The notes under the pieces: generated by a model | The model's input: the letters and a program-made list of their open reading frames with translations, nothing else | Database searches by the model: none | What the model was told of the DNA's origin: nothing | Shown here: piece by piece, positions 37,781 to 54,539 of the stretch | Layout of the letters: the number at the start of each line of letters is the position of its first letter | Position numbering within the stretch: position 1 is the stretch's first letter | DNA from: Aulosira sp. ZfuVER01 | Lineage (GTDB): Bacteria; Cyanobacteriota; Cyanobacteriia; Cyanobacteriales; Nostocaceae | NCBI GenBank assembly: GCA_034530615.2 | Contig: JAVRCV020000055.1 | Span: 39,617 to 103,616, forward strand | Reading direction: 5' to 3' | DNA: 64,000 nt | Made by a program: the position numbers and the translations under genes

Positions 37781-38602
37781 CTAATCCCGTCTGTGCTTTG
37801 TCATCCCTCGCATCACCTGTCCCATGATCTGAACACGCATCCACCGTGGCAACGGCATGAGCGAGTACGTAAGCAGCTTCGATAACAAGCCAGGCAAAAC
37901 CACAGACTTGCGCCCTAAAGCATCTAGGGTTGGCTGTGCGACATCAACAGGGTTTAACGCCATACCCATCCGCATGTTAGCACGGGCAGCGAAGCCACTA
38001 TTAGTAGGCCCAGGCGCGGACGCTATAACATCAACTCCTGCAGGAGCGAGTTCCACATGCAGCGCCTCGGCTAGGGTATGGACATAGGCCTTGGTTGCTG
38101 CATAATGCGCGGCGTTTGGCATCCCTTGAAAACCCACGATTGAACTCATCAGCACCATCCCACCTCGACCACGTTTAGCGAAGCGTCGCCCAAAATACCA
38201 GATCAACGCCACAAGTGAGCGGCAGTTAACGTTGAGCATTTCCAGTTCTTGCTCTAATGCGGAATCAAGAAACGAACCCGATGTGCCAAAGCCCGCAGCC
38301 GCAACCAGCAAACCGACATCCAGTCCGCCAGTCACCGCCGCCAAGGTTTCAACCCCAGTCTCGCGGGCTAAGTCAAGGCTGATTACTTGAGATTCGATCC
38401 CATATTTCGCAGCTAAATCAGCGGACATCTGCTCCAGCACGGCTTGGCTTCGTGCGATCAACACGAGGTTCAATCCGGATTCGGCGAGTCGGAGTGCCAT
38501 CTCGCGCCCAATCCCCGAAGAGGCACCAGTGACGATCGCCCAAGGGCCATACCGGGTGCGGAACCGCTCTTTCCGAAAACTTTGAGACTGCATTTGCTTC
38601 AT
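37781..38602 (-). CDS. Short-chain dehydrogenase/reductase
   Basis: TGASSGIG and YAATK motifs; visibly GC-richer than its flanks. Confidence 0.92.
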   Translation of the reverse strand: MKQMQSQSFRKERFRTRYGPWAIVTGASSGIGREMALRLAESGLNLVLIARSQAVLEQMSADLAAKYGIESQVISLDLARETGVETLAAVTGGLDVGLLVAAAGFGTSGSFLDSALEQELEMLNVNCRSLVALIWYFGRRFAKRGRGGMVLMSSIVGFQGMPNAAHYAATKAYVHTLAEALHVELAPAGVDVIASAPGPTNSGFAARANMRMGMALNPVDVAQPTLDALGRKSVVLPGLLSKLLTYSLMPLPRWMRVQIMGQVMRGMTKHRRD

Positions 38603-38862: not shown

Positions 38863-39108
38863 ATGGAAAAGCACAAAAGAAGTTACAACGGTCATCTAGA
38901 AATTAACAGCCTAATTGATGATGCTGTAAATAATGCGATCGCAAGACGCAATCAAGGTTTGGATTCAGAAGATACTTTGGCAGATGTATCTGATGAAGAA
39001 GCGAAAAATGTTGCAGGTGGTCTAGCATCTACAACTACAACCATTGGTTTGATTGCTAAACCTCCGATTGTTGTAGGCATCATTGCCATCCCAACTGAAA
39101 CTATTTAG
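38863..39108 (+). CDS. Putative RiPP precursor, leader class 1 (double-glycine)
   Basis: GAGGAG ribosome-binding site; ...DVSDEEAKNVAGG followed by core LASTTTTIGLIAKPPIVVGIIAIPTETI. Confidence 0.7.
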   Translation: MEKHKRSYNGHLEINSLIDDAVNNAIARRNQGLDSEDTLADVSDEEAKNVAGGLASTTTTIGLIAKPPIVVGIIAIPTETI

Positions 39109-39140
39109 CCATCAAGATTCTCTTCGCTGAGGCGCAATTA

Positions 39141-39578
39141 ATGGAAAACATTGCTGCTGAAAAAACTACACTTTGCCCCAGTGCTAGACCTGAACCTAAG
39201 AATAGTGTGGTTTTCGGTATCATCAGTGGAACAATAGCAGAACCTCGTGTAGCTTATCTAAAGCAGCCCCAAACACTCACAGATGAACTCATCGCCAAAG
39301 CTAGCCCAATTACACCCGCTGAAATTTTTCGCACAGCCTCACCTTGTGCCACAAAAGGTTGCCAACATTTTGATGGACAAGATTGTCGTCTAGCTACGCG
39401 CATTGTCGAAAAGTTACCTGCGATCGCAGAGGAATTACCCCCTTGTCCTATACGCCGAGATTGTCGGTGGTGGCAGCAAGAAGGTAAGGCGGCTTGTATG
39501 CGTTGTCCTCAGGTAATTACAGATAACTACAATGCCTCTGAACTAGCAATTGAAGTAGCAATACCAACTGCTATTTAA
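39141..39578 (+). CDS. Cys-rich protein of unknown function (8 Cys)
   Basis: CPSA, Cx4C-x7-C, Cx5C and Cx2C; lies between precursor genes. Confidence 0.75.
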   Translation: MENIAAEKTTLCPSARPEPKNSVVFGIISGTIAEPRVAYLKQPQTLTDELIAKASPITPAEIFRTASPCATKGCQHFDGQDCRLATRIVEKLPAIAEELPPCPIRRDCRWWQQEGKAACMRCPQVITDNYNASELAIEVAIPTAI

Positions 39579-39597
39579 CTAATCTCAGGAGCAGATT

Positions 39598-39906
39598 ATG
39601 TCCTTAGAAAATGTTAGATCTTTCTACGAAAGACTAGCATCTGATGAAGCTTTCCGTACCCAAATACAAAGTGTAGAAAGCAAGGAAGCAGGTAGAGAAA
39701 TCCTGCAAAATGCTGGTTTTGATTTCACCAAAGAAGAGTTTGAAGAATATACGGCTCAATTATTAGAGTCAGAGAATGAACTTCAAGATGTAGATCCAGC
39801 AGAACTAGCATCTGTAGTTGGTGGATTAGTTGGATTATATCCCATATTTTTCTTAATTTATGGAGCGCCAAGTGGTCTGTGGAATTACACAAATCTCTTG
39901 CCTTAA
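39598..39906 (+). CDS. Nif11-leader RiPP precursor (spliceotide-like)
   Basis: Nif11 leader (MSLENV..FYE.L..DEAF...AGFDFT.EE), ELASVVGG, core containing LIYG. Confidence 0.9.
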   Translation: MSLENVRSFYERLASDEAFRTQIQSVESKEAGREILQNAGFDFTKEEFEEYTAQLLESENELQDVDPAELASVVGGLVGLYPIFFLIYGAPSGLWNYTNLLP

Positions 39907-39971
39907 TTAAGAAAAACCTGCTTTTAAAGTTGACCCAGTTGTAGAGTTAAATAACTACTAGGAGTTATTTT

Positions 39972-40310
39972 ATGTGCCTAGAAAATGTCAGAGATTTTTA
40001 CAAAAAGCTAGCAAATGATGAGGCTTTCCGTACTCAAATGCAAGCTGTTGGAAGTAAGGATGAATGTAGCCAAGTTGTCAAAAACGCTGGCTTTGATTTT
40101 ACTCAAGAAGAATTTGAAGAATATACAAGTCAATTATTAGAATCAAATGCGGATGAGAGTGAACTAAAGGATTTAGGCGAAAAAGAACTAGAAGCCGTTT
40201 TTGGTGGCATTCTTGGTAAGCCGATAATCCAGCCTTTATATGGAGTTACTTGGTGGCCGCCTATTTATGTTCAGCCTTTGTATGGAGTTATTACGACCGA
40301 TAATGTCTAG
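39972..40310 (+). CDS. Nif11-leader RiPP precursor (spliceotide-like) with two QPLYGV motifs
   Basis: ELEAVFGG followed by core ILGKPIIQPLYGVTWWPPIYVQPLYGVITTDNV. Confidence 0.92.
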   Translation: MCLENVRDFYKKLANDEAFRTQMQAVGSKDECSQVVKNAGFDFTQEEFEEYTSQLLESNADESELKDLGEKELEAVFGGILGKPIIQPLYGVTWWPPIYVQPLYGVITTDNV

Positions 40311-40398
40311 AACAGCTTAACAAGAAGCTCAAGGTATGGGGACAGATGAGAATATATCCGTCCCCTTGTAGAGAAATTGATTAAGGGAGTTTACTCTC

Positions 40399-41655
40399 AT
40401 GTCCTATCGCAGAATTAGCTATGCGGTTTGGGAAATTACCTTAAAGTGCAATCTTGCTTGTCAGCATTGTGGTTCTCGCGCTGGCCATACAAGAACAAAA
40501 GAATTATCCACCGCCGAAGCCCTTGATTTGGTCAAACAAATGGCGGAAGTTGGGATTACAGAAGTAACAATAATTGGTGGTGAGGCTTTTCTACGTTCTG
40601 ATTGGTTAGAAATTGCCCAAGCAATTACCAAAGCAGGAATGCTTTGTGGTATGACTACCGGAGGCTATGGTATCACTCTAGACACAGCCCATAAAATGAA
40701 GGAAGCTGGAATTAATGTGGTTTCTGTGTCTGTTGATGGCTTAGAAGCAACTCACGATCGCATCCGTGGTAGACAAGGTTCATGGCAATGGGCGTTTAAA
40801 ACCATGAGTCACCTTAAGCAAGCGGGTATTCCCTTCGGTTGCAATACACAAATCAATCGCCTATCTGCACCAGAATTTCCTCGTATTTATGAACATCTGC
40901 GCGACGCAGGAATCTTCGCTTGGCAAATTCAATTAACTGTACCGATGGGGAATGCAGCCGATAATAACGAGATTCTGCTGCAACCTTATGAATTACTGGA
41001 TGTATACCCAATGATTGCGCGTGTTGCTCAACGAGCCAAGCAAGAAGGGGTACAGGTACAGCCAGGGAATAACATCGGTTACTATGGCCCTTATGAGCGA
41101 TTTTTACGAGGCGGCGATGCTTGGACTTTTTGGCAAGGGTGCAGTGCTGGATTGTCTGCTTTAGGAATTGAAGCCGATGGGGCGATTAAAGGTTGCCCTT
41201 CACTACCAACTACAGCTTACACCGGTGGAAATATCCGCGATCGCTCTTTGCGCAGCATCATTGAAGAAACAGAAGAACTGCGGTTTAATTTGGGCGCTGG
41301 TACTCCCAAGGGTACAGAACATTTGTGGGGTTTCTGCAAAACTTGTGAATTTGCCGAACTATGTCGAGGTGGTTGCAGTTGGACTGCACACGTCTTTTTT
41401 GACAAACGAGGTAACAATCCCTATTGCCATCATCGTGCCCTCACTCAACAAAAACAAGGTATCCGCGAACGAGTGTTTCTCCAACGTAGTGCTGATGGTA
41501 ATCCCTTTGATAATGGAGAATTCGCTTTAGTAGAAGAGCCTATTAATGCTCCTTGGCCAGAAAACGATCCGCTTCACTTTACTGCCGATCGCATTCAATG
41601 GCCAGAAAGTTGGCAAGAAGAATTATCGCTACCATCGTTAGTTGTTTTGAGTTAA
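40399..41655 (+). CDS. Radical SAM/SPASM maturase, PlpX/PcpX-like splicease
   Basis: CNLACQHC, GGE, SPASM cysteines (C..G...IKGCPS...CKTC...LCRGGC...YC); adjacent to XYG-containing Nif11 precursors. Confidence 0.88.
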   Translation: MSYRRISYAVWEITLKCNLACQHCGSRAGHTRTKELSTAEALDLVKQMAEVGITEVTIIGGEAFLRSDWLEIAQAITKAGMLCGMTTGGYGITLDTAHKMKEAGINVVSVSVDGLEATHDRIRGRQGSWQWAFKTMSHLKQAGIPFGCNTQINRLSAPEFPRIYEHLRDAGIFAWQIQLTVPMGNAADNNEILLQPYELLDVYPMIARVAQRAKQEGVQVQPGNNIGYYGPYERFLRGGDAWTFWQGCSAGLSALGIEADGAIKGCPSLPTTAYTGGNIRDRSLRSIIEETEELRFNLGAGTPKGTEHLWGFCKTCEFAELCRGGCSWTAHVFFDKRGNNPYCHHRALTQQKQGIRERVFLQRSADGNPFDNGEFALVEEPINAPWPENDPLHFTADRIQWPESWQEELSLPSLVVLS

Positions 41656-41679
41656 ATCAAGTTCAGCAATCTGAATCTT

Positions 41680-41874
41680 ATGCATGATAGCTCTAGCGAT
41701 CATCTGCCTACAACAGATGGCGATCGCTCTCCATCTGAATTAGGCTCTCAAGAACCTCTTTTACCTCGTTTAGCTTGGAACAGTCAAATAGCTTATATGC
41801 GAGTTGTTTTTAAAGCTAAAAAGGCTTTAGATCGCATCGAGCAAGAAGCAGGTATTTTGATAATCAACAAATAA
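41680..41874 (+). CDS. PlpY/PcpY-like small splicease partner
   Basis: 64 aa directly after the radical SAM gene; LPR..W.....KAK..L pattern as recalled for PlpY. Confidence 0.65.
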   Translation: MHDSSSDHLPTTDGDRSPSELGSQEPLLPRLAWNSQIAYMRVVFKAKKALDRIEQEAGILIINK

Positions 41875-41902
41875 CTTTTTGATAAATCTTCAAAATTTAT
41901 TT

Positions 41903-42100
41903 ATGTCTAGAATAAGAGTTTCCGACTTAAATTCTGCTGGTTCTGAGTTTTTTCAAGATTCTGAGACTTTTCTCTTAGACTTAAAAGATGATGAACTTTG
42001 TATGCAACATGGTGGAATTTTTATTACCACTAACATCAGTGTAATTAACGTTCCTATTTCGGAAGATATTTTTGCTCAGTCTATTTCCTTCATTCGGTGA
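41903..42100 (+). CDS. Putative RiPP precursor, leader class 3
   Basis: I.VSDL...GSEFF.DSETFL.DL.DDEL....GG leader shared with the 46839-48146 peptides; Ser/Thr-rich core. Confidence 0.75.
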   Translation: MSRIRVSDLNSAGSEFFQDSETFLLDLKDDELCMQHGGIFITTNISVINVPISEDIFAQSISFIR

Positions 42101-42498
42101 TTGAAAATTGACAACTGGTTTAGCGGCTATTTATGCCTCTAACCTTACCTCTGTAAATACCTACCCGCCCATAATCTGAAGAATCACGATTGCTGGACAA
42201 TACTAAAACAATTATGTTCCAAAAACATAATTATTCTAGTTGCTTTAACAATAGTTAAATGTCAAACTTTCAAATATAGCGATCGCATAATATCTAATCT
42301 CGAAACAGATTCCAACTCAACTCAAAAACCACACCGAGGTTTTATTGCTTTGTTTTCGCTGTAGGTTATTTCTAACAATAAACCCTCACTAGCCATGAGG
42401 GTTTGTTACTTAAATATTTAAAAAATTATTTCACTAGCAATATTGAATTTTAAACCAAGCATTTAAAGTTATAAAAATTGTTTAGACATTTCAAGGTT

Positions 42499-43632
42499 AT
42501 GAAATTCATTTTAAACTCCGATAATGTTTTTGCTTATTTAATTGAGCAGGACGTATGTAATCAATCTGATGCAATTCCCTGCACGATAGAACCAATAACT
42601 GCAAAAAACTTTAATTTATTACTAAGTCTTGCAGATAGTCGTAAGCTTCTTGTTAAGCAAGAACGACATAATCAAGAAGGTAAAACTGCTGGTGAGTTTT
42701 TGGCTGAGTGGAGAATTCAAAAGTTTTTACAGCAATTTCCCAAACTTAATAACTATCAGCATTTTTTGCCAGAAGTACTGCATTTTGATCGAGACAATTC
42801 CATTATTGTCTTTAGATACCTAGACGATTATCGGGATTTAATGGATTTTTACACCAAAGAAAACTCCTTCCCTACAGAAATTGCCACAGCAATTGGCACT
42901 ATCTTAGGCACCATCCATCGTGATACTTTTAACAACCAAGAATATCAAGAATTTTTCTCTAACCCTTCAGATAATCTCATGGTTGATCAAGTATCGTACT
43001 TGGTGCGGAGATTGGAAAGAGTTGAACCAGAGATTTTTGGCTTGATACCTGATGATGGGTTAAAGTTCTTTGCCCTCTATCAGCGTTATGATAGCTTAGG
43101 AGAAGCGATCGCAGAACTAGGTAATGCTGTAATTCCTTCTTGTTTGACGCACAATGACCTGAAACTGAATAATATCCTGCTGCAAAAAGATTGGCAGTTT
43201 TCCAGTAATCATACAATCCGCTTAATTGATTGGGAACGCTCTGCTTGGGGAGATCCAGCATTTGATTTGGGAACACTGATTGGTAGCTATGTGCAAATCT
43301 GGCTGGGTAGCTTAGTCATTAGTAATTCTTTGAGTATTGAAGAATCTCTGCGTTTAGCAATTACGCCTTTAGAACTACTTCAGCCTTCAATTGGCGTATT
43401 AACCCAAGCTTATTTAACTAGCTTTCCAAAAATTGTAGAAAACCGCCCCGACTTTTTACAGCGAGTAGTGCAATTTACAGGTTTTGCTTTAATACAACAA
43501 ATTCAGGCAATGATTCAATATCAAAAATACTTTGGCAATACAGGAATTGCAATGCTTCAGGTTGCTAAAACATTATTATGTCGTCCTGTACAATCCATGC
43601 CAACAATTTTTGGTACTGCTGCTGTTATATAA
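42499..43632 (+). CDS. APH-like peptide kinase (LanK/TvaC-like)
   Basis: LLVKQE, HNDLKLNNIL, IDWE and GDPAFDLG motifs. Confidence 0.85.
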   Translation: MKFILNSDNVFAYLIEQDVCNQSDAIPCTIEPITAKNFNLLLSLADSRKLLVKQERHNQEGKTAGEFLAEWRIQKFLQQFPKLNNYQHFLPEVLHFDRDNSIIVFRYLDDYRDLMDFYTKENSFPTEIATAIGTILGTIHRDTFNNQEYQEFFSNPSDNLMVDQVSYLVRRLERVEPEIFGLIPDDGLKFFALYQRYDSLGEAIAELGNAVIPSCLTHNDLKLNNILLQKDWQFSSNHTIRLIDWERSAWGDPAFDLGTLIGSYVQIWLGSLVISNSLSIEESLRLAITPLELLQPSIGVLTQAYLTSFPKIVENRPDFLQRVVQFTGFALIQQIQAMIQYQKYFGNTGIAMLQVAKTLLCRPVQSMPTIFGTAAVI

Positions 43633-43657
43633 ATCATTTCATTGCAACTAAATAATT

Positions 43658-44770
43658 ATGCAATTATTAAATTCTCCTCAATCTCAGTTAGATAATACTT
43701 CAACTGGGCAATTACTGAATGTACTGCAAGATATTGTTTGCAAAATCGAAATTAAATCTGATTTCTCCATTTACCATCCAGACTATAAACCTTTAGAATT
43801 ACCATCTCAAATTATTGAACGGTTTCAAAAAATGCCAACTCAGATGCAGCAGAAATATCTGAGTCTGCAACTGCGGAGTTTTCTTTATGGGATTTATTAC
43901 AATGGTTCAATGCGAACTGCGCTAGCGTTAAATGGTGAAGGAAATGCTTTGCCCCTCGATTTAGAAAATAATACTATCTTAGGGATAGATATCAGTTTTT
44001 ATGAGCAATTGCATGAAAGTAATTGTGGAGAAGGTTATTTCGATCCTGGTTGGTCTGTAATTAGAGAAGAAATAGATGATAGTTTAGCTGTAACTAAAGG
44101 TGGTTTGAGGTTACATATTCAGCGACATAAGCATCTTCAAACTATTGAACAAGCTGCCGTAGTTGGCGATATAGTAGCTATCCGAATGCCTAAAAACCGG
44201 GTGCAAAATGGCTTTTATATGGCAGTTGGCAATCTAGGGTTTCCCGGTCTTACAAATCCTAAAAATTCCCTAGTGACTGTACGAAGCTATTTCAATTTAA
44301 CTCCTGAAGGGGCTGTGGAAGTAATGAGAAGCCTGACACAGATGTTAAATGATTTAGCAATTTATTTTAGTTTTAAGGTTTTATATAATCCCAAAGATTA
44401 CGGACGGCATGATTCTGGAGTTTTATACTTTGATAAAAGCGATTATCCAGTAGTTAGGGAAGTTTTAGAGATTGTTTATCGAGAAAATAAGTTACATTTT
44501 CAGCCAGAAATCCCCTTATTTACAATGCAGCTTCAACCTGGATTAGGTTTAGCAGAAGAACCAGATCAAAAGTTTGCCGAACATGAAAGCTTTGGTATGA
44601 ATCGCTGTCAAATTGTAGCCAATGGATTACTAGCGGCTTGGTATCCAGGTGATAATTCTCCAGCAGGGCGGATGCAAGCTATCCGTCAGGAATTTTCGCG
44701 CTTGGGTATTGATTTGCAGCGTACCTACTTAAATGCTAATTCTGAAGACATCTACCAGTTTTTGAACTGA
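43658..44770 (+). CDS. HopA1-like protein (LanY/TvaD-like phospho-lyase)
   Basis: DPGW, R.YFN, FKVL, R.DSGVLY, PG.GLAEEP and SFGMNRC motifs; paired with the kinase. Confidence 0.82.
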   Translation: MQLLNSPQSQLDNTSTGQLLNVLQDIVCKIEIKSDFSIYHPDYKPLELPSQIIERFQKMPTQMQQKYLSLQLRSFLYGIYYNGSMRTALALNGEGNALPLDLENNTILGIDISFYEQLHESNCGEGYFDPGWSVIREEIDDSLAVTKGGLRLHIQRHKHLQTIEQAAVVGDIVAIRMPKNRVQNGFYMAVGNLGFPGLTNPKNSLVTVRSYFNLTPEGAVEVMRSLTQMLNDLAIYFSFKVLYNPKDYGRHDSGVLYFDKSDYPVVREVLEIVYRENKLHFQPEIPLFTMQLQPGLGLAEEPDQKFAEHESFGMNRCQIVANGLLAAWYPGDNSPAGRMQAIRQEFSRLGIDLQRTYLNANSEDIYQFLN

Positions 44771-45786
44771 TGCTAATAACAGATCTTTCTGCACAGGTTT
44801 TAGTAGAAACAAATAAAAATACTTGTCCAAATCCTAAATTTCCAGAATCAGATCTGCCTTTCTATCGAAATTTGGGACGAACTGACCTGACAGTTAGCTG
44901 TTTGGGTTTAGGAGGCGGTGGTCACATTTCCAGTGAAGATACCCTTTACGCCTTTGACCAAGGAATTAACTACTTTTTTTATTCCAGCGACCTGCATCAC
45001 CATATCTACAGTTCAATGGCTGGGGCACTGCGCCAACTGTGTGGTCGTGGTTCTGCAAAGCGAGAACAAGTTGTACTCGCAACAGTGACTTATATCAAAA
45101 GTCCAGAGATGGCGATGGCTGCTTTGTTCGATCAATTTGTCGATTTACAAATTGACTATATTGATGTGTTTTTCTGGGGCTGGATTGGCGTTAAAGATGG
45201 ATCAGCTTTAGAAGATTGCTTGCAACTTTCTCCTGATTTAAGAGGGCCTAACTCTGTATATCAGCGCAGCATTGAAAAAATGCTTGGCATCTCAGAACGC
45301 CTAAAGAAAATGGGAGCAGTTCGCTATATTGGTGCTTCTTTTCACGATATCAATCTTGCTCAACAGTGGTCTAATAGCCCTCTGTTGGATGTAGTCATGG
45401 TCAGGCACAATGTTGCGCATCGGTCTGCACAATCGCAGGTATTTAATCGGCTAGACCCCCAAAAGCCTCATCGTCCTGGTATCGTGACGTTTAAATCTAC
45501 AGGTTCTCATACAGGAGTTCTCTGGAATGCGCCGCAAAGCTTACCAGCAGGTTGTTGGCAACCGTCAGTACCCGATTTATATCGCTACTCTTTAAGCCAG
45601 AATTGCGTCGATGTTTGTTTAGCCGGATGGCGATATCGGGAAGAAATTGATGCCGCGATCGCCGGAATCCAAAAAGGCAAGCTTTCTCCAGCAGAAATTG
45701 ACTACCTCAATCTATACGGAGATTTACATCGCAATAGTCTTTCGCTGGCAGATATTTCACCAGAAAGCTTAATTTATCGTTCCTAG
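44770..45786 (+). CDS. Atypical aldo-keto reductase family protein
   Basis: YRNLGRTDLTVSCLGLG, IDYID and G.VRYIGAS motifs; start overlaps the HopA1 gene stop codon. Confidence 0.8.
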   Translation: MLITDLSAQVLVETNKNTCPNPKFPESDLPFYRNLGRTDLTVSCLGLGGGGHISSEDTLYAFDQGINYFFYSSDLHHHIYSSMAGALRQLCGRGSAKREQVVLATVTYIKSPEMAMAALFDQFVDLQIDYIDVFFWGWIGVKDGSALEDCLQLSPDLRGPNSVYQRSIEKMLGISERLKKMGAVRYIGASFHDINLAQQWSNSPLLDVVMVRHNVAHRSAQSQVFNRLDPQKPHRPGIVTFKSTGSHTGVLWNAPQSLPAGCWQPSVPDLYRYSLSQNCVDVCLAGWRYREEIDAAIAGIQKGKLSPAEIDYLNLYGDLHRNSLSLADISPESLIYRS

Positions 45787-45809
45787 ATATCAAAAATCAA
45801 CTACAGCTT

Positions 45810-46544
45810 ATGCTAGATTCCATACCACAATTAACATTCCCAGAAATTACACCCGCCTCAGATGAAGATATTCTGGCTTACTTACGTCACTCTTTTACAA
45901 TTGCGACAATAGCGGCAGCTGCGGAACAAAATATATACATACTTAAAGTATGCGATCGCTTGGGAATTTCTGTGACTGATGAAGAATTGCAAGCAGTAGG
46001 AGACTCATTTCGCCACGATCGCAAACTGCTAGGAGTTTCCGAAACAATAGCATGGCTGACACAGCAACGAATTAGCGCAGAAGATTGGACGCAAGGAATT
46101 CGCTTATCCTTACTCACTCAAAAATTAAAAGAACATCTCTTCGGTGAGAACGTTGATGCTCACTACATTAACAACCGTGATAGTTATAAGCGTGTAGCTT
46201 TGTCGCAAATTTTAGTCAAGGATTTAACCGTAGCAACCACTATTGTTCAACTTCTACAAGAAAATCGAGTATCATTCCCTGCGTTAGCATTGGAATATTC
46301 GCAAGGGAAACAATCAAAAGAAAATGGCGGTTTCGTTGGCATCCGCTTTCTTGCTGAATTATTGCCAGAAATAGCAAGAGCGATCGCTGATGCACCGGAA
46401 GGTGAAGTAGTTGGGACAATTCAAACTCAAATGGGTTATCACATCCTCCGAATTGAGAAATGGATGCCTGCAAATTTAAGTGAAATTCGAGAAGAAATTT
46501 TGGAGTCTTTATTTCAAGCGTGGTTAAAAAATAAACAACTTTAA
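45810..46544 (+). CDS. PpiC/rotamase-type peptidyl-prolyl isomerase (RiPP-associated)
   Basis: F..LA..YS.....NGG.VG and I.TQMGYHIL motifs. Confidence 0.85.
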   Translation: MLDSIPQLTFPEITPASDEDILAYLRHSFTIATIAAAAEQNIYILKVCDRLGISVTDEELQAVGDSFRHDRKLLGVSETIAWLTQQRISAEDWTQGIRLSLLTQKLKEHLFGENVDAHYINNRDSYKRVALSQILVKDLTVATTIVQLLQENRVSFPALALEYSQGKQSKENGGFVGIRFLAELLPEIARAIADAPEGEVVGTIQTQMGYHILRIEKWMPANLSEIREEILESLFQAWLKNKQL

Positions 46545-46838
46545 TAAAAATATATAATTTTGATTGATGGCATAGCAAAATATTTTTTTAAATCATCAAG
46601 CCTACCTATAACTTGTGTTTAGGTAGGTTTATTCATATATCTATAGTTATCAAATTCTTCTTTTGCCTTGAGATTATGAAAATAAAAGTAACTTTTATGT
46701 TCATTAAATAGAGCGCTATCTGTAGATACATTAATTTATTTATGGCAATTTATTAATAGAAAGCTAGAAATTCAATTGATGAGTTTCAGCAACCTATATC
46801 TCTAACCAAAAATTGTTAAAAATTCTCAGGAGATTGAA

Positions 46839-47054
46839 ATGGCTGCTATTACAATTCATGATTTACGTCCTGTCGGTGCAGATTTATTTGCTGGTTCTGA
46901 AAACTTCATGAGTGATTTAGTTGACTCCGAACTAAATGCAGTTAATGGTGGTATTTCACCTTTAGTTATTTGGGGTGTAGCAATCACATCAGAATATATA
47001 ATTAGTGCTTTTGGCGTAGGCGTTGGTGCTGGTATTTATACAGCACTTAAGTAA
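46839..47054 (+). CDS. RiPP/bacteriocin precursor A1
   Basis: AGGAG ribosome-binding site; ELNAVNGG followed by core ISPLVIWGVAITSEYIISAFGVGVGAGIYTALK. Confidence 0.88.
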   Translation: MAAITIHDLRPVGADLFAGSENFMSDLVDSELNAVNGGISPLVIWGVAITSEYIISAFGVGVGAGIYTALK

Positions 47055-47080
47055 CTTAAAAATAAACTGAGGAGTAAACA

Positions 47081-47272
47081 ATGGCTACAATTCGCATTGA
47101 ACAATTAAGCGCAGGTTTTGAACTGATTGCTGACGAAGAAACATTCTTGGATGAACTCACTGATAGCGATCTAGATCTGAACAAAGGTGGAATCACCCCC
47201 GTAATTACAAGCCTGATCGTATTCTCCGCAGGCTATGGTGTAGGTAGAGCAATCAGTGAAATTTTCAAGTAA
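47081..47272 (+). CDS. RiPP/bacteriocin precursor B1
   Basis: GAGGAG ribosome-binding site; DLDLNKGG followed by core ITPVITSLIVFSAGYGVGRAISEIFK. Confidence 0.88.
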   Translation: MATIRIEQLSAGFELIADEETFLDELTDSDLDLNKGGITPVITSLIVFSAGYGVGRAISEIFK

Positions 47273-47300
47273 CCATTGATATAACCAATAGTTCAATAAT

Positions 47301-47350
47301 AAAATAAGAGCAATAGTTATGGTTTAACATAACTATTGCTCTTATTTTTT
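47301..47350 (+). terminator. Terminator/stabilising hairpin after the A1-B1 cassette
   Basis: Perfect 21-bp stem AAAATAAGAGCAATAGTTATG / CATAACTATTGCTCTTATTTT followed by Ts. Confidence 0.8.
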
Positions 47351-47698
47351 TGGTAATTTTTAAATTTTTAGTCATCAATATATTGCGCAAAAATTTGATT
47401 ATAATTTTTAGTTAAAAACGTAGTATTAAAGCAGGTTAATATATTTGGTACAGGTAAAATCTCAGATTAAGTTTCTAATTTAAAATTTCTTTTAAAACAC
47501 AGAAATATAAAATTATTTTTTAGCATTTCATTAGATATTTTGAAAATAACAGTAACTTTTATGTTCGTTTATTAAAGCGTTATCTCTAGATCCATAAGTT
47601 TATTTATGGCAATCTATTAACAGAAAGCTGAAAAGCATCAATTGAATTTCAGCAATCTACTAGCTATTAATAATTGTTCAAAATTTTAGGAGATTGAA

Positions 47699-47914
47699 AT
47701 GGCTGCTATTACAGTTCATGACTTACGTCCTGCTGGTGCAGATTTATTTGCTGGTTCTGAAAATTTCATGAGTGATTTAGCTAATTCCGAACTAAACACA
47801 GTTAACGGTGGTTTAACACCTGTAGTAATTTGGGGTGTAGCAATTACATCCGAATATGTAATTGGTGCTTTTGCTGTTGGTGTTGGTGCTGGTATTTATA
47901 CAGCAGTCAAGTAA
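47699..47914 (+). CDS. RiPP/bacteriocin precursor A2
   Basis: Paralogue of A1; core LTPVVIWGVAITSEYVIGAFAVGVGAGIYTAVK. Confidence 0.88.
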   Translation: MAAITVHDLRPAGADLFAGSENFMSDLANSELNTVNGGLTPVVIWGVAITSEYVIGAFAVGVGAGIYTAVK

Positions 47915-47948
47915 GCTGTAAATTCAGAAATTATGTGAGGGGTAAATA

Positions 47949-48146
47949 ATGGCTACAATTCGCATTGAACAGTTAAGTGCAAGTGTCGGTTTTGAACTGA
48001 TTGCTGATGAAGAAACATTCCTAGATGAACTCACCGATAATGACTTAGATTTGAATAAAGGTGGAATCACTCCAGTAATTACAACCCTGATAGTTTTCTC
48101 CGCAGGCTATGGTGTAGGTAAAGCAATCAGTGATATTTTCTCATAA
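47949..48146 (+). CDS. RiPP/bacteriocin precursor B2
   Basis: Paralogue of B1; core ITPVITTLIVFSAGYGVGKAISDIFS. Confidence 0.88.
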   Translation: MATIRIEQLSASVGFELIADEETFLDELTDNDLDLNKGGITPVITTLIVFSAGYGVGKAISDIFS

Positions 48147-48318
48147 TCTTTGATATCATAATCAAAGATTATTTCCAATTTTTTTAACTGTAGAATAATT
48201 AATAGCAGGAGTCATAAAAATTTAAGTTCAGACCTCACATAAAGTCTGACTCCTGCTTTTCCAGCAAAGATTAGGCTGTAAACAAAGATTTTGTCAACAC
48301 TTAAAAGAGGTAGAATTT

Positions 48319-48576
48319 ATGTTCAGCAATCGTTCTAACCCTCTGGATATTACAATTCCCTTATTTGTAATTATGGGAATTTCACAAATAATTCTTGGTA
48401 ATTATGTACTCGCTGGTATTTTGCTAATAATAGCTTTAGGGCAATTTGTTGTACCTAGAGTTGGAGTTAACAATTTAAATCAATTGCATAGGCCTGAAGT
48501 TCTGTTTGTCTGGGTGATTATTACAACATTTAGCTGTTTAGTCATCTACCAAATTTATAGAGATGCGTTTTCCTGA
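48319..48576 (+). CDS. Small membrane protein, candidate immunity factor
   Basis: 85 aa with about three hydrophobic segments, GAGG ribosome-binding site, directly after the precursors. Confidence 0.6.
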   Translation: MFSNRSNPLDITIPLFVIMGISQIILGNYVLAGILLIIALGQFVVPRVGVNNLNQLHRPEVLFVWVIITTFSCLVIYQIYRDAFS

Positions 48577-48669
48577 TTGAGCCTTCGTAGCATCAAACTC
48601 GCCAATTTTATTGAGCTTTAATATAAAAAATTATCCCACCTATTATATTAGTGGGATAAAGCTTCTTAT

Positions 48670-49431
48670 TCAGTTGTTAACTTTGACTAAATCTTGTGTA
48701 ACTGGTAATAAATAATTCATAGATTCAGTTTTTTTCTTTAACCATTCAGAGAATAATTTGGTGAATATTTTAGTACGTATATTATCATCTAATTGCGGTT
48801 GAATTATTTCTTCTACAAGAATGAGATGTATCCCAGATGATGTGATAATGGGCTTAATTAACTGTGGTGGTTGAGCGGCAAAGACTGTAGCGGAAATTTC
48901 CGATTTCATATCCTTGCGTTGTACTATACCTTTATATCCTAATTGTCGCCTTAGTTCTGTATCTTTAATGTATTTGTGAGCAACATCATAAAAACTAATT
49001 TCACCCTCTTGAATAGCATAAAAAAGTTCTATTGCTAAATCTTCATCATCTAAGACGATTTCATATATCACGGCACTCAAGTAATCTAGTTGATGTTCAA
49101 AGAAGTATGGTTCGATTTTATCTGCAAATAGATAAAGAGCTAATTTGTTAGAGATAATAGTATGGTGAATGATGTCTTCAAAATCATCTAATGAAAGTCC
49201 ATGTTTTTCGAGCCATTCCCAGGTCTCATCAGCATTATGGAGTTTATTAGCTAACCTGATTTGGTCTGCTGTTTTTTGCAGTTCTTCAACCTCTACTTTG
49301 ATTCCAAGTTCCTCAGCAGTAGATATAATTACCTTGCGGTTAAGGATTTGTTCAACTATCTCAGGAATTTTGCAAGTTAACTTGATTTGATGAAGAATAT
49401 CTTCGTTAGTAATAGTGATGGGATGTAACAC
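48670..49431 (-). CDS. PpiC/rotamase-type protein of a bacteriocin export operon
   Basis: VEELQ..AD..R, F..VA..Y and PI.T..G.HLI motifs. Confidence 0.85.
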   Translation of the reverse strand: MLHPITITNEDILHQIKLTCKIPEIVEQILNRKVIISTAEELGIKVEVEELQKTADQIRLANKLHNADETWEWLEKHGLSLDDFEDIIHHTIISNKLALYLFADKIEPYFFEHQLDYLSAVIYEIVLDDEDLAIELFYAIQEGEISFYDVAHKYIKDTELRRQLGYKGIVQRKDMKSEISATVFAAQPPQLIKPIITSSGIHLILVEEIIQPQLDDNIRTKIFTKLFSEWLKKKTESMNYLLPVTQDLVKVNN

Positions 49432-49574
49432 TCTCTTCCTCCTAAGTTAAGTAAATTTCCTATTTAATTTATTTCGGCTAGCAACTATGTGATTTTCAAC
49501 TCTAATTATTAGAGATTTATAGACAAACAAGCTGAAAATATGAGGTTGAAAACTATATAATTTAGTTGAATTTC

Positions 49575-51098
49575 TTATAATTTTATGCCACCCTGTTGCA
49601 ACTTTTTAAATGGGTCGATAAGAAAATCGATAATACGGCGCTGGCGTACAATCACTTCAGCCGTGGCTGTATCTCCTGGATGTAAAGCAATACATTTATT
49701 AGCAGAAGGTATACAATTCTGTTTTAAGGCAATTTCTAAGTTATAAGCTGCTACTTTTCCATTAGGTGTATCTATCTCCGTTGTAGTAGGAGAAATCTTA
49801 ATTAACTCTCCTGAGAGAATACCATAATCCTGAAATGGATAAGCATCAAATTTTAATTTGACTGCCAATCCTTTTTGTAAAAAACCGCTTTCCGTAGTTG
49901 CCATTTGTGCCCGAATAATTAAAGGTGAGTTTAGGGGGGAAATCTCTGCTACCATTGTTCCTGGCTGAACTACAGAGCCAGCTTTTTGAATTGGTAACTG
50001 AAATAACGTACCATTGACAGTAGCTTTTATCTCTCGTTGACCTAATTGAAATTTTAATGATTCAATCTGACTTTTAGTTTGAGCGATTTCTGCTTTTAAA
50101 GAAGTAATTTCTGTATCTAATGTTTTCTGTTGATCGGCAATTTTTAGCACGGCTAGTTGACCAGAGCGAGTCAAGGACTGATAACCCCTTTCTTGTTCTT
50201 TGAGCCGTAACTGAGCTTGTTCGATATCTGCACTAGCTTGGCGAAGATTGCGCTCGTAACTACTTTGCTGTTCTGCTAAACGTAACTTAGACTGTTCAAT
50301 ATCTGATTTGCTTTGTTCATATAATTTTTGTTTATCTTTAGCGATGTCTTGCTTTTCTACCAAATTAATCTCTGGTACAATTCCTTCTTGTTTGAGCTTT
50401 CGATAACGTTCCACTTCTCGCTGGGTACTTGCTAAAGTACTTTCCATCAATTTACTAACAGTTCGGCTGTTTTCCAGAGTTTGTCGTACCTGATTTAATT
50501 GAGATAGTTTCTCATCTTTTTGTAATGCATATGCATTGTTTAACGTATTAATATTCTGCCGTGCTTGGTCGATTTGAGCTTGCTTTTCTAATTGTTGAGA
50601 TTGATTTTGTTGTTGTTGAGTTGTCAAAGATACAATTAACTGATTTTTCGATGAACTTAACTGTGAAAGTCGATTTAATTGTCCCTCTAATTTATCTTGA
50701 TTCTGACGCAATTCGGTTTTGACTAATTCTGATTCTAATAATAATAAAGTCTGTCCAAATTTAACTGATTCACCCTCCTTGGCTCTAATTTCAGCAACAG
50801 TTCCAGCCACAGGAGCATCGAGTTTAATTGTCCGATCTTGGGGTTCAATTCTTCCTCTAGCTGTACCAGTTTCATCTACTTTAGCGAGGATTGCCCAAGG
50901 TAAAATTATGGATATAAAGATGACCAAGAAATATAGCAATCCCCTTGTCCAAACTTGAGGTAGGCTTTCAAGTGTTTCTTTCGTTATTTCAGACCAATCA
51001 TCCTTTGCTGTTACTGGTGATGGGGGTGGTAAAGTTTCTGGATGAGATACATCTTCTATTAAAGGATTTTTAACCCGTCCATTCAAGATATCTGTCAT
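49575..51098 (-). CDS. HlyD family membrane fusion protein
   Basis: N-terminal transmembrane helix, long coiled coil, KFDAYPFQDYG motif. Confidence 0.93.
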   Translation of the reverse strand: MTDILNGRVKNPLIEDVSHPETLPPPSPVTAKDDWSEITKETLESLPQVWTRGLLYFLVIFISIILPWAILAKVDETGTARGRIEPQDRTIKLDAPVAGTVAEIRAKEGESVKFGQTLLLLESELVKTELRQNQDKLEGQLNRLSQLSSSKNQLIVSLTTQQQQNQSQQLEKQAQIDQARQNINTLNNAYALQKDEKLSQLNQVRQTLENSRTVSKLMESTLASTQREVERYRKLKQEGIVPEINLVEKQDIAKDKQKLYEQSKSDIEQSKLRLAEQQSSYERNLRQASADIEQAQLRLKEQERGYQSLTRSGQLAVLKIADQQKTLDTEITSLKAEIAQTKSQIESLKFQLGQREIKATVNGTLFQLPIQKAGSVVQPGTMVAEISPLNSPLIIRAQMATTESGFLQKGLAVKLKFDAYPFQDYGILSGELIKISPTTTEIDTPNGKVAAYNLEIALKQNCIPSANKCIALHPGDTATAEVIVRQRRIIDFLIDPFKKLQQGGIKL

Positions 51099-51169
51099 GA
51101 TTTCCTTGGAGCAAGATTTTTAACTGAGGACATTAATAATAAAGTGGACATTGCCCACCTTACTTTTGT

Positions 51170-53920
51170 TTATGCTACGCCTTGTAATTGCTGTTGATTG
51201 AGGTAAAAATAATGCCCTCGCTTTGCCATCAATTCTGCATGAGTTCCACTCTCAATCAATACGCCTTTATCTAGTACCAAAATCATATCTGCATTTTGTA
51301 CAGTGGAAAGACGATGAGCAATTACTAAAGTAGTTCTTCCTTGAAGAATTGTGTTCAAATTTTGCTGAATAATTCTTTCTGACTCAGTATCTAAATGGGA
51401 AGTCGCTTCATCTAAAATTAGCAATCGAGGATTACCTAACAAGGCTCTAGCAATAGCTATTCGTTGTCGTTGTCCACCAGATAATAAACCGCCACCTTCA
51501 CCAATTTGGGTTTCATAACCCATTGGTAATTTTTTAATAAACTCATCAGCACCCGCTAATTTTGCGGCTTCGATAACTTCGGTTAGAGGTGCGCCGGGAT
51601 GTCCTAAGCTAATATTTTCTCTAATTGTTCCGCCAAATAAAAAGGTGTCTTGGTCAACTACCCCAACTTCTTGGCGCAAGGAACGCAAGGAAATACTAGT
51701 AATATCTTGTCCATCAATTAGCACTTTACCATCGGTAGGCGGATATAAGCCTAAAACTAACTTAGAAATAGTAGTTTTTCCAGAGCCACTACGTCCAACT
51801 AGCGCTACCATTTGTCCCGGTTTTACTTCAAAATTGAGATTTTCTAAAATATTGACATCACTTTCTGGGTGATAGCGGAATGTGACATTTTCAAAGCGGA
51901 TATTTCCCCGAATATACGGGAGATTTTGACGTGCTTGGTGTTGTAAATCTTCTTCTGGGTCTGTATCTAAGACATCATTAATACGTTCGACGGCAATCAC
52001 GACTTCCTGCAATTGATTCCACAATACTATTAAACGTTGGAATGGTGTAATAATATTGCCTAAAAGCATATTAAAAGCCACTAACTGCCCAATAGTTAGC
52101 TGGTTTTGAATTACCAAATGTGCCCCAAACCATAGTAAGGCAGTAGTTACTACTGCTTCAATAGCATTGCTAAAAATTTGCAAGCGGTTACTAATAACTT
52201 GCCCAGAAAAGTTGGTTTTGATTTCTTTATTTAATAACTCTTCCCAATGCCAACGAACTGTATGTTCTACTGCCGTAGCTTTGACTGTTCGGACACCAGT
52301 TAAGGCTTCAATTAAGTAACTACTTTCATTGGCAACAGCATTAAATATTTCTCGTGAAATTCTTTGTAAAAAAGGCGTGGCAATTAATGCTAATAAAGCA
52401 AACGGCGGTACAATCACCAACACTAGCAACGCCATTTTCCAACTGTACCAAAACATTAATCCTACATAGATAAATACTGTGAGTAAATCTAGGAGGATAG
52501 ATAATGCTTCGCCGGAAAGAAAGCGTTGGATTTTACGGTTTTCCTGGACGCGGGAGATAATATCCCCTACATAACGGGACTCGAAGAAACTCAAGGGTAA
52601 GCGCAAGGTATGGCGAATAAACCCAACAATTAATGCTAAGTCTATACGATTAGCTGTGTGGTCTAGTAGATATTGCCGCAACCCTGTCATCGCTACCCGG
52701 AAGAGGCTAAAAATCAGCAAGCCTATTCCCACCGCTGTTAAAGTCAGTTGCGATCGCTGTACAACTACCCGATCTAAAATTAACTGGGTGAACAGGGGCG
52801 TAATCAGACCAAATATCTGGATAAATACTGAAGCAACAAATACTTCCAGCATCACCAGACTGTGAGGCTTGAGTAACTCAAAAAATTGCCAAAAAGGGGT
52901 AGAACTTTCTTTAGCATCTTTCAGCATGGCTGTGGGTTGCAGTAGCAGTGTATAACCAGTCCAGCCAAGTTGAAATTCTGCGTGACTCAGGGTGCGTTGA
53001 CCAATACCTGGGTCTGCAACAATGACGTGTTTCGGGGTAATTTCGTAGACTACAATGTAATGCTTGCCTTCCCAGTGGACAATTGCAGGCAATTTTTGCT
53101 TTGCTAACTGGTTAAGGCTAGCCTTTACAGGTCGTGTGGCAAAGCCAAGACTTTCCGCCGCCGTTAATAACCCCCGCAACGATGCACCATTGCGGTCTAC
53201 ATTGGCGATATCCCGCAAACGATTCACACTAAAGCGTTTACCCCAATAGCGAGACACCATGACCAAACAAGCTGCACCACAGTCTGATGCACTTTGCTGG
53301 GCAAAAAACGGATAACGGCGAGTCACCCGTTGCCATAAATGCCCGACTCGCTCGGTAGGTTTGGGAAAATAGGCTTTACTAATCTTTTTTTGTGGCGGCT
53401 CTGGGGTAGCCGTTGACAAATTATTTGTTTTATGTATTGAGGTCGAGGCGTAGGCGTAGCCCGTCGTAGACATCGCTGTTACAGGGAAACGATCGGGTTC
53501 TACTTGTAGGGAATTACGAGATAGTGCTGCTTGCCACAAATGTTCCCTAATTGGGGGATGATTAGCCATTAATCGCCACAACACCTCAGCAGGAACAAAG
53601 CATAATTGCAAATTTATCGAAGCCCTAGCAGCATAAGGCTTGAACTCAGCTTCTGGAAATAAGGTAAATTCACCAAATGAACTGTCCCGATCCAAAGTGG
53701 CGATCAACTCATCTGCATGATTAAGTAACCTCACCTTACCAGCGATCGCAATGTAGATACCTGGTTCAACGTCAGTTCCTTGCCAGAACTTACCAACTTT
53801 GGGGTTGATAAATTTAAATTGTTGCAGACAGCGCTGAAATTCTGCCTCGGAAAGCGAATACCCCAAAAGATTGTTGAACTGTTCCAGAGATACTAACGGA
53901 TCTGATAGATTTTGCACCAT
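51170..53920 (-). CDS. Peptidase-containing ABC transporter (cNMP-like + C39 + TMD + NBD)
   Basis: QQSASDCGAAC, HYIVV, VADP, GRSGSGKT and LSGGQRQR motifs. Confidence 0.95.
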   Translation of the reverse strand: MVQNLSDPLVSLEQFNNLLGYSLSEAEFQRCLQQFKFINPKVGKFWQGTDVEPGIYIAIAGKVRLLNHADELIATLDRDSSFGEFTLFPEAEFKPYAARASINLQLCFVPAEVLWRLMANHPPIREHLWQAALSRNSLQVEPDRFPVTAMSTTGYAYASTSIHKTNNLSTATPEPPQKKISKAYFPKPTERVGHLWQRVTRRYPFFAQQSASDCGAACLVMVSRYWGKRFSVNRLRDIANVDRNGASLRGLLTAAESLGFATRPVKASLNQLAKQKLPAIVHWEGKHYIVVYEITPKHVIVADPGIGQRTLSHAEFQLGWTGYTLLLQPTAMLKDAKESSTPFWQFFELLKPHSLVMLEVFVASVFIQIFGLITPLFTQLILDRVVVQRSQLTLTAVGIGLLIFSLFRVAMTGLRQYLLDHTANRIDLALIVGFIRHTLRLPLSFFESRYVGDIISRVQENRKIQRFLSGEALSILLDLLTVFIYVGLMFWYSWKMALLVLVIVPPFALLALIATPFLQRISREIFNAVANESSYLIEALTGVRTVKATAVEHTVRWHWEELLNKEIKTNFSGQVISNRLQIFSNAIEAVVTTALLWFGAHLVIQNQLTIGQLVAFNMLLGNIITPFQRLIVLWNQLQEVVIAVERINDVLDTDPEEDLQHQARQNLPYIRGNIRFENVTFRYHPESDVNILENLNFEVKPGQMVALVGRSGSGKTTISKLVLGLYPPTDGKVLIDGQDITSISLRSLRQEVGVVDQDTFLFGGTIRENISLGHPGAPLTEVIEAAKLAGADEFIKKLPMGYETQIGEGGGLLSGGQRQRIAIARALLGNPRLLILDEATSHLDTESERIIQQNLNTILQGRTTLVIAHRLSTVQNADMILVLDKGVLIESGTHAELMAKRGHYFYLNQQQLQGVA
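53451..53471. repeat. 21-nt SDR5-like element inserted in a HIP1 site, in frame within the transporter
   Basis: GCG[TAGGCGTAGCCCGTCGTAGAC]ATCGC. Confidence 0.85.
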
Positions 53921-54539
53921 GAATCCCTGAGTCTGTTCCTAATTTTGCAAAATTGATAGGCAAAAATTCACTATTATCTGGTGTATTTTCTGATTTAAGG
54001 TCGCTAATTAAAATTTTGGCACTCTTGCTTTTTTCTACACTGTTTTCCTCAACAGTCACAGATTTTGGTCGAATCGATAAACCCATTTGCTTCAGCAGTC
54101 GATTAATATGATGACCGCTGACTTTAATTCCCAAATCTTTCGCCAACTGTTGACTCAACCAGTTACCTGTCCAACGCCCAAAAGAATAGCCATAATCGCG
54201 GGGACTATGACTGATAAGTTCTTTTAAACGTTCTAAATATTCTTCATTTACTGCTTTAGGGCGACCAATTGCACAATCCTGCCATTGATGCGCCATACCA
54301 GTACGCGCTATGTGCATCCAATGTCTGGCCGTTGCTGGACAGCAGCCTACTATCTGACAAATTGTGGTTTGAGATTTTCCCTCATCTGCCATTAACATAA
54401 TTTCAATACGCTGACGGTAAGACTCAGGTAAATCTTCTTGTAAACTCTTTTGCAGAATTTTGCGTTGAAAAGATGTTAAACACTTACCATCAAATTTCCC
54501 TGAATATTTAGTGTCAGTTTTCGTTTGGTAGTGCGACAT
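53814..54539 (-). CDS. Helix-turn-helix protein resembling an IS630 transposase N-terminus, with no DDE domain; candidate regulator
   Basis: HTH, GRP motif and P..YGY....WT...L winged-HTH pattern. Confidence 0.75.
   Translation of the reverse strand: MSHYQTKTDTKYSGKFDGKCLTSFQRKILQKSLQEDLPESYRQRIEIMLMADEGKSQTTICQIVGCCPATARHWMHIARTGMAHQWQDCAIGRPKAVNEEYLERLKELISHSPRDYGYSFGRWTGNWLSQQLAKDLGIKVSGHHINRLLKQMGLSIRPKSVTVEENSVEKSKSAKILISDLKSENTPDNSEFLPINFAKLGTDSGIHGAKSIRSVSISGTVQQSFGVFAFRGRISALSATI

Follow-up and report, generated by a model that had tools for sequence, protein, structure and literature searches.

The window analyzed here, 64,000 nucleotides of contig JAVRCV020000055.1 from the cyanobacterium Aulosira sp. 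ZfuVER01, contains an island of about 16 kb (38863-54539) that encodes precursors and maturation enzymes for peptides made by the ribosome and modified after translation (RiPPs) together with one exporter. Our comparisons suggest that the island is probably a C39/HlyD/SurA exporter locus of the Wang group II type that carries several independent peptide pathways, with each enzyme set working on its own leader class; co-location would then reflect shared export rather than hybrid products. A single 16-kb clone holds three leader classes, one exporter and enzymes that are probably kept apart, and its main value lies in two leads, an atypical protein of the aldo-keto reductase (AKR) fold and a small protein with eight cysteines (Cys8).

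Two of the enzyme sets carry this reading: a radical SAM/SPASM splicease with Tyr-Gly (YG) sites in Nif11-leader precursors, and a kinase/HopA1-like lyase pair with Ser/Thr targets in precursors of the cyanobacterial Family 1A. In a comparison of cores that counted identical cores once and left out those shorter than 12 aa or without GG/GA, the Ser/Thr fraction of Family 1A cores was 0.204 at loci with kinase and AKR (86 cores, 27 loci), 0.155 with the kinase only (27 cores, 13 loci) and 0.088 where the locus has no kinase (29 cores, 19 loci). The Nif11 cores showed 0.086 with a kinase (n=49) vs 0.085 without (n=73). YG is present in 122 of 122 Nif11 cores, and in Family 1A cores it occurs in 5/113 beside a splicease vs 2/31 without one. 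These figures argue for a target residue that, for each enzyme, tracks its own leader class only. A preliminary description of this DNA had proposed that the pathways may cross-modify each other's substrates, and that proposal finds no support here, with neither a YG enrichment in Family 1A cores nor a Ser/Thr shift in Nif11 cores.

Organization of the island

Every gene that the preliminary description had named in the island is present in its place and on its strand; the 85-aa hydrophobic open reading frame (ORF) at 48319 is an addition to that gene list. The features are as follows.

38863..39108 (+) precursor A0, 81 aa, with helical leader, GG and 28-aa core; putative Cys8 substrate
39141..39578 (+) Cys8 protein, 145 aa, candidate metal-binding maturase; eight Cys invariant in 85 rows
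39598..39906 (+) Nif11-leader spliceotide precursor with one IYG site; TIGR03798, 58.7 bits (cut-off 32.3)
39972..40310 (+) Nif11-leader spliceotide precursor with two LYG sites; TIGR03798, 52.4 bits, above the cut-off
40399..41655 (+) radical SAM/SPASM splicease, PlpX type; TIGR04103, 853.5 bits (cut-off 725)
41680..41874 (+) putative Y-type splicease partner, 64 aa; homologue in 77/79 splicease loci
41903..42100 (+) precursor B0, with Family-1A-type leader and a core without Cys or YG; closes the splicease unit
42377..42408 (+) hairpin in the 398-bp gap between splicease and kinase units; z -4.65, 0/200 shuffles
42499..43632 (+) APH-like Ser/Thr kinase (LanK-like); PF01636, HxDxxxxN and DWE motifs
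43658..44770 (+) HopA1-like phospho-Ser/Thr lyase (LanY-like); PF17914, 203 bits
44770..45786 (+) atypical AKR-fold protein, candidate dehydroamino-acid reductase (LanJ-like)
45810..46544 (+) PpiC-type rotamase of the kinase/lyase/AKR cassette; present at 55/64 AKR places
46839..47272 (+) peptide pair C1+D1; the leaders are of Family 1A, and the hydrophobic cores lack Cys, bear Ser/Thr and contain GxxxG
47699..48146 (+) peptide pair C2+D2, a tandem copy of C1+D1 together with the DNA upstream
48319..48576 (+) 85-aa hydrophobic protein, candidate immunity protein by hydropathy
48670..49431 (-) SurA-like rotamase of the exporter operon
49575..51098 (-) HlyD adaptor; TIGR01843, 222.4 bits (cut-off 208.65)
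51170..53920 (-) long-type C39 peptidase ABC exporter (cyclic-nucleotide cNMP domain, C39, ABC); its Cys, His, Asp and Walker A motifs are all preserved
53814..54539 (-) helix-turn-helix (HTH) protein similar to the N-terminus of an IS630 transposase and kept in front of the exporter at other loci; 67.9 bits, below the cut-off of 100

Eight small plus-strand ORFs with leaders ending in GG are indeed present (starts 38863, 39598, 39972, 41903, 46839, 47081, 47699 and 47949), and a GG-leader pattern is matched by exactly these eight when all 60 ORFs of the window that start with ATG and encode 55-120 aa are considered; drawn up after sight of the eight, the pattern shows that no other ORF fits it and is not a significance test. 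Their leaders fall into the three classes that had been proposed, an unnamed helical one (38863), Nif11 (39598, 39972) and a class of 37-39 aa (five peptides). The count of eight holds for ORFs but reduces to six peptide types, the last four ORFs being two copies of one tandem unit. None of the eight cores contains Cys. The enzyme assignments likewise stand, with the splicease above its family cut-off and the catalytic motifs of kinase and lyase intact, and the two chemistries originally counted are probably too few. The rotamase genes exist as described, and the corrected count is two, one per strand.

The genes are closely packed into units with 398, 294 and 426 bp between them: the splicease unit (38863-42100), the kinase unit (42499-46544), the two peptide pairs with the 85-aa ORF, and the convergent exporter operon. 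Each gap between units contains a hairpin (z -4.65, -4.62 and -10.2), the strong one at 47298-47351 following C1+D1. A sigma-70 promoter scan was uninformative (47 sites vs 50.5 expected).

Exporter and linkage of the modules

The exporter operon joins a long C39 transporter to HlyD and SurA-like genes beside modification genes, the composition that defines Wang group II. One exporter is likely shared by all leader classes, and the C39 transporter would cut all leaders at GG during export. Each module also occurs with this exporter type in the absence of the other, 20 splicease loci being without a kinase and most kinase loci without a splicease. A same-strand overlap of 107 nt (53814-53920) joins the HTH gene to the beginning of the transporter ORF, as in 13/30 listed HTH/transporter pairs, and the true start of the transporter may lie later.

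Linkage was followed in 79 close splicease loci, taken from the best 80 of 462 stretches with 10-kb flanks, some on short contigs. Kinase and HopA1 are present in 31 of the 79, AKR with its rotamase in 16, Cys8 in 57, A0 in 53 and HlyD in 42 (20 of the 42 without kinase). The architecture is recurrent rather than unique, synteny placing the same pairing in other genomes. Among 150 other genomes of the order, compared by eye, linked copies number 4/14 for the splicease and 4/57 for HopA1, counts from which links may be missing where an assembly is fragmented. At 10 of the 31 loci the kinase cassette next to the splicease has the inverse orientation, and the kinases are 38-93% identical and belong to several lineages; in a quick tree the same-orientation kinases fall mostly into one group of 22 rows, and inverted ones are spread over several lineages among unlinked kinases. 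The link thus recurs, is old in part and is not obligatory, and we regard the stretch from splicease operon to exporter as a cargo zone. Both modules and the exporter have been described singly, and it is their combination that is recurrent. Our literature search found no paper on a splicease combined with kinase/HopA1 and none containing all four search terms, in line with the earlier statement that no characterized cluster of this kind was known; MIBiG, subscription papers and two supplements, which may show it, were beyond its reach.

Two other readings of the island have to be weighed against separate pathways that share an exporter. A true hybrid pathway, with splicease and dehydratase each also modifying the precursors of the other and the AKR turning the ketoamide left by splicing into an alpha-hydroxy-beta-amino acid, would draw on the linkage in 31/79 close splicease loci, on the leader independence of PlpX reported in the accessible text of PMC11414181, on GYG in the D1/D2 cores and Thr in the Nif11 cores, and on the position of B0 inside the splicease unit. 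We judge it very unlikely: the cores show neither the YG enrichment nor the Ser/Thr shift, the AKR meets a splicease at just 12/64 places, most D-type homologues lose YG, and the 398-bp gap with its hairpin parts the modules. Neutral accretion, with the modules landing at an insertion hot spot, each having other exporters and no functional coupling, fits the 11 C39 matches and 4 HopA1 loci of the host genome (one C39 match being an 80%-identical exporter paralogue), the 10/14 unlinked splicease copies and the variable cargo. That reading is improbable, if a little less so, given the same exporter operon within 10 kb in 42/79 splicease loci, 20 of them without kinase, its presence beside most kinase cassettes, and the fit of all leaders to the GG pattern.

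Several observations weigh against our own reading of independent pathways with a common exporter. A leader-independent PlpX together with GYG in D1/D2 makes incidental splicing possible, and B0, though part of the splicease unit, carries a kinase-type leader. In one kinase clade, of 22 rows, kinase and splicease are joined in one and the same orientation, as expected of a link that is old and stable, and the loci of the core comparison are related, so that its statistics overstate independence. Position -4 is polar in B0, D1 and D2. In the characterized Rheinheimera multi-cluster (PMC11626197), the spliceotide precursor encoded alongside was left uncut by the C39 domain, and shared export is therefore no given. 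The multi-cluster is at the same time a precedent in favor of co-located but separate pathways, the one cross test made there, between its two ATP-grasp ligases, having shown no cross-modification.

The splicease module

Type I spliceotide systems are recognized by a radical SAM/SPASM splicease, XYG cores, a separate small Y protein and a loss of 135 Da at XYG. In the window the splicease belongs by its profile score to TIGR04103, the PlpX family, and has CxxxCxxC at residues 17-24 and the SPASM cysteines; the cores have XYG sites (IYG once, LYG twice). The putative Y partner is conserved in its C-terminal half and is likened to PlpY by position and conservation. By sequence, then, splicease, putative partner and Nif11 precursors are a type I spliceotide system as in PMC11414181, and by analogy with PlpXY they would excise tyramine at the three XYG sites of the two precursors to leave alpha-keto-beta-amino acids.

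B0 stands directly behind the Y gene at several loci (L005, L029, L032, L037, L042, L045), including one with an inverted kinase cassette (L029) and one with no such cassette inside 10 kb (L037), and its core keeps an S-E-D-[IL] motif.

The kinase/HopA1 module and its peptides

The longest ORF of the kinase begins at a TTG at 42478, and against the LanK-type family NF038156 it scores E 9e-26 and 90.8 bits, below the cut-off of 315. The lyase has R209, K240, R250 and Y257 at the same spacing as R187/K219/R229/Y236 of CaoY. With an adjacent phosphotransferase/HopA1 pair and five GG-leader peptides with variable cores, the module fits the description of Family 1A. The accessible part of PMC8153245 lists 183 clusters and 570 peptides for this family, with a product known for none. 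By analogy with CaoKY, the kinase would phosphorylate, and the HopA1-like lyase eliminate, Ser/Thr of the Cys-free peptides, giving dehydroamino acids without lanthionine. A class V lanthipeptide was considered as well; the cores have no Cys, and the window ORFs include no cysteine decarboxylase or cyclase. We rejected that filing because Cys is absent.

The duplicated unit of the two peptide pairs measures about 860 bp (spacing 860-874 nt, DNA identity 83-86%). Ser/Thr occur in the cores from position 2 on and never at position 1; the D1/D2 cores hold a GYG site, and YG is not kept in most D-type homologues. GxxxG is present, and matches to the class IIb two-peptide family TIGR03949 (16.7 and 16.4 bits) stay below the cut-off of 21.5. 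Homologues of the 85-aa protein adjoin C/D-type peptides in six other loci (L005, L007, L174, L236, L243, L244). The outcome might conceivably be hydrophobic peptides of the two-component kind that are active on membranes, accompanied by a small immunity protein.

Besides the island, the host genome has three further kinase/HopA1 loci: one with an intact LanM, Cys-containing cores and the 80%-identical exporter, one with a Lys/Ser-repeat core, and one around which no precursor was found. Elsewhere in the genome the AKR-linked rotamase has an orphan copy (58% identical), away from any AKR or kinase gene.

The atypical AKR-fold protein

Assignment of the AKR fold is based on PF00248 (31.6 bits, above the cut-off of 24) and on a profile that matches AKR structures at E 1e-20. 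The structure model is poor (predicted local distance difference test, pLDDT, 53), so that the Foldseek match to the AKR fold rests on a low-confidence model whose quality is too low to place active-site residues. The canonical AKR catalytic tetrad is Asp-Tyr-Lys-His. It is absent here, the aligned positions being F70, L75, V106 and G137, and D74 and Y80 near the lost positions may serve as substitutes. D74, H76, Y80, Y108 and K242 are invariant in 57-59 of 59 dehydratase-linked copies and are missing from three short paralogues. Pfam and NCBIfam scans matched the protein to AKR families only, with no match to a zinc-, flavin- or F420-dependent dehydrogenase family.

The surroundings of the AKR gene were read at 64 places, comprising 63 of the 64 homologue rows other than its own (one duplicate contig omitted) and one place from another search. 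A Ser/Thr dehydratase adjoins it at 63 of these (56 kinase/HopA1, 7 LanM only), and the remaining place, on a contig of 6 kb, is a broken fragment. Four LanMs of two loci (L182, L183) were confirmed as such. At five of the seven LanM-only places the Cys that serves as first zinc ligand of the cyclase is missing from the LanM, though five control LanMs have it, and 34/35 cores there are Cys-free; the other two have near-intact cyclase motifs and cores with one Cys and several Ser/Thr. Four of the seven LanM-linked proteins were included in the AKR tree, where their grouping has no support. The AKR most likely acts on dehydroamino acids because it follows two unrelated dehydratases with Cys-poor cores. 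The NpnM/NpnJ system likewise has Cys-free cores. A role as reductase of the splice ketoamide was also considered and set aside, co-occurrence with the splicease being so infrequent.

Whether the protein is in fact a new LanJ-type dehydroamino-acid reductase, reducing dehydroalanine and dehydrobutyrine of Family 1A peptides to D-Ala and D-aminobutyrate (D-Abu) as LanJ enzymes do, we consider an even call on the co-occurrence evidence. Our literature search found no paper on an AKR acting in RiPP biosynthesis, again with subscription papers, MIBiG and two supplements outside its reach. ElxO reduces N-terminal keto-acyl groups. Within the same modular island the AKR-fold protein could instead be a non-catalytic binding partner, a reductase of such N-terminal groups or a protection from reactive dehydropeptides, an alternative that is a real possibility, if clearly the less probable one. 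In its favor, Phe, Val and Gly stand where AKRs canonically have Asp, Lys and His, the tetrad is likewise lost from three short paralogues that lie outside RiPP loci, and Ser/Thr opens some LanM-linked cores. Against it, the dehydratase-linked clade has invariant residues of its own, the window cores never start with Ser/Thr, and the AKR accompanies two unrelated dehydratases. Two of these observations weigh on the reductase reading itself: the tetrad loss alone is no sign of a RiPP role because non-RiPP paralogues share it, and the 13 kinase-only loci of the core comparison show that the AKR is dispensable.

AKR-linked Family 1A cores include repeated N-A-N-T/N-V-N-T patterns (L016:16478-17038, L028:16761-17321, L015:17503-19320, L179) that would fit D-residues derived from Thr/Ser and that resemble the alternating pattern of polytheonamide-type peptides. 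Clusters of AKR with LanM (L183, L229, L230, L231, L232) have many NHLP precursors, mostly Cys-free, and are further multi-pathway islands; they adjoin an ATP-grasp gene (MvdD-type, L183) or genes of 360-490 aa without assigned family.

The Cys8 protein and precursor A0

Cys8 has about 2,000 homologues and a confident model (pLDDT 88.7), and it found no match in Pfam, NCBIfam, PDB sequences, Foldseek or VIA-align, a result that does not by itself prove a new fold; in the Atlas it falls only into unnamed 'nitrogen fixation protein' clusters. A0 has no Pfam or NCBIfam match. Its core holds two [TV]-[IV]-G-[LI]-I-A motifs and no YG, and among homologous A0 cores a hydrophobic-x-Gly-hydrophobic motif is present in 51/52 and YG in 1/52. 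In Spirosoma, Streptomyces, Agrobacterium and one Nostoc plasmid, Cys8 lies behind a short protein with a like motif and a differing leader, and the Gly motif persists across four leader types that include NHLP and signal-peptide-like ones. An upstream ORF is conserved at 39/46 distant metagenome loci (read by eye, 46 examined of 60 found), and no radical SAM enzyme occurs among the 103 ORFs neighboring Cys8 at 26 distant metagenome loci. The Polymorphobacter locus showed no peptide of this sort, and it has a different radical SAM gene close by. Many distant partners are proteins of about 100 aa without GG or exporter, and the profile match between cyanobacterial A0 and these is weak (probability 5.4%, E 0.007).

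A predicted A0-Cys8 complex scored 0.46 vs 0.00 for the best control, a weak pass with a partner pLDDT of 47-52. The mark was reached by 116/157 solved and 2/215 mismatched pairs, 18 solved pairs and both mismatches lying at 0.60 or under, and such weak passes are more often wrong than right unless the pair was likely beforehand.

A0 and Cys8 make up a cross-phylum pair that stands alone. Taken together, these observations suggest, tentatively and with a confidence just short of even, that Cys8 is a third maturase, a predicted metalloprotein that would bind the helical A0 leader and act at the hydrophobic-x-Gly motif. Somewhat under that in probability, though well within consideration, Cys8 would have no enzymatic role and would serve A0 as a chaperone that binds the peptide, in immunity or in metal handling, or A0 would be a second type of splicease substrate. 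The small size of Cys8, its lack of a fold match, distant partners that often have neither GG nor exporter and the resemblance of the A0 motif to the P-x-Y-G-V motif of Nif11 cores speak for this. The existence of the pair without any radical SAM enzyme, the retention of the Gly motif across four leader types and the invariance of the eight Cys count against it.

High-GC Cys8 homologues stand behind a peptide of 83-86 aa with E-W-x-G-[LI]-W (L145, L147, L148, L151, L153, L155), with W-Y-G in three, and the peptide of Cys8 locus L121 has I-Y-G, a possible tie of the Cys8 motif to the spliceotide XYG motif.

Neighboring sequence

The divergent short-chain dehydrogenase/reductase gene at 37781-38602 was rejected as an island member, with a match (30-34%) in only 2/79 splicease loci. 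Just outside the island, a group II intron reverse-transcriptase fragment (55152-55601, -) overlaps an ORF at 55477-56130 (+) with a metallo-beta-lactamase fold resembling persulfide dioxygenases. A DUF1796 papain-like peptidase is seemingly split into overlapping ORFs (34144-34611 and 34574-35224).

Implications and comparison with known systems

The most far-reaching claim would be that the island holds four chemistries of which two are undescribed, the AKR being a fourth class of dehydroamino-acid reductase behind kinase/HopA1 or LanM across Nostocales and Cys8 a standalone metalloenzyme of new fold acting cross-phylum on a hydrophobic-x-Gly backbone motif; that both hold jointly is rather unlikely. 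Were the AKR link true, many cyanobacterial kinase/HopA1 clusters without a product would make linear D-amino-acid peptides by dehydration followed by reduction. As a reductase the protein would be an enzyme class outside LanJ-A/B/C, with close homologues in 52/200 genomes of the host family, and enzymes that install D-amino acids are useful for peptide engineering. The Cys8/A0 pair offers a two-gene route into a possible new backbone chemistry.

The following comparisons refer to the accessible parts of the cited sources. As in Wang group II bacteriocin clusters (PMC3140520, PMC4558948), the island has a long C39 transporter that includes a nucleotide-binding domain, along with HlyD, SurA, genes for modification and many precursors (average 3.78 in that group), whereas its maturases are unrecognized in that scheme. 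The Rheinheimera RiPP multi-clusters (PMC11626197) likewise co-locate a spliceotide pathway with unrelated RiPP pathways and a C39 exporter; they differ in having a type II splicease and ATP-grasp partners, and their C39 domain cut the graspetide precursor rather than that of the spliceotide.

The plp cluster carries an epimerase gene. PlpAXY/PcpAXY of Pleurocapsa spp. (PMC11414181) share with the window the radical SAM/SPASM X protein, a small gene directly downstream (a putative Y gene in the window) and XYG precursors, whereas the window system is flanked by the A0/Cys8 pair and the kinase/HopA1 cassette and has no epimerase gene. Family 1A clusters (PMC8153245) share the kinase/HopA1-like pair and a number of GG-leader precursors that differ from one another and vary in their cores; their co-occurrence table gives a column each to aldo/keto reductase and to PPIase (peptidyl-prolyl isomerase), and in it the reductase is named without interpretation and a radical SAM column is absent. 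Class V lanthipeptides such as cacaoidin and lexapeptide (PMC9486802) are alike in LanK/LanY-type dehydration, in the lyase residues and in an adjoining reductase gene. They are unlike the window in that its five cores have no Cys and it has no decarboxylase or cyclase, hence no lanthionine or aminovinyl-cysteine (AviCys), and in that its candidate reductase is of the AKR fold and not F420H2-dependent.

The three described LanJ classes, LanJ-A/B/C (PMC11519912), reduce dehydroamino acids to D-Ala/D-Abu and resemble the AKR setting in placing an oxidoreductase beside a Ser/Thr dehydratase with cores richer in Ser/Thr than in Cys. They are zinc/NADPH, flavin or F420 enzymes, none of AKR fold, whereas the window protein is a candidate only, a TIM-barrel AKR fold with a remodeled active site.

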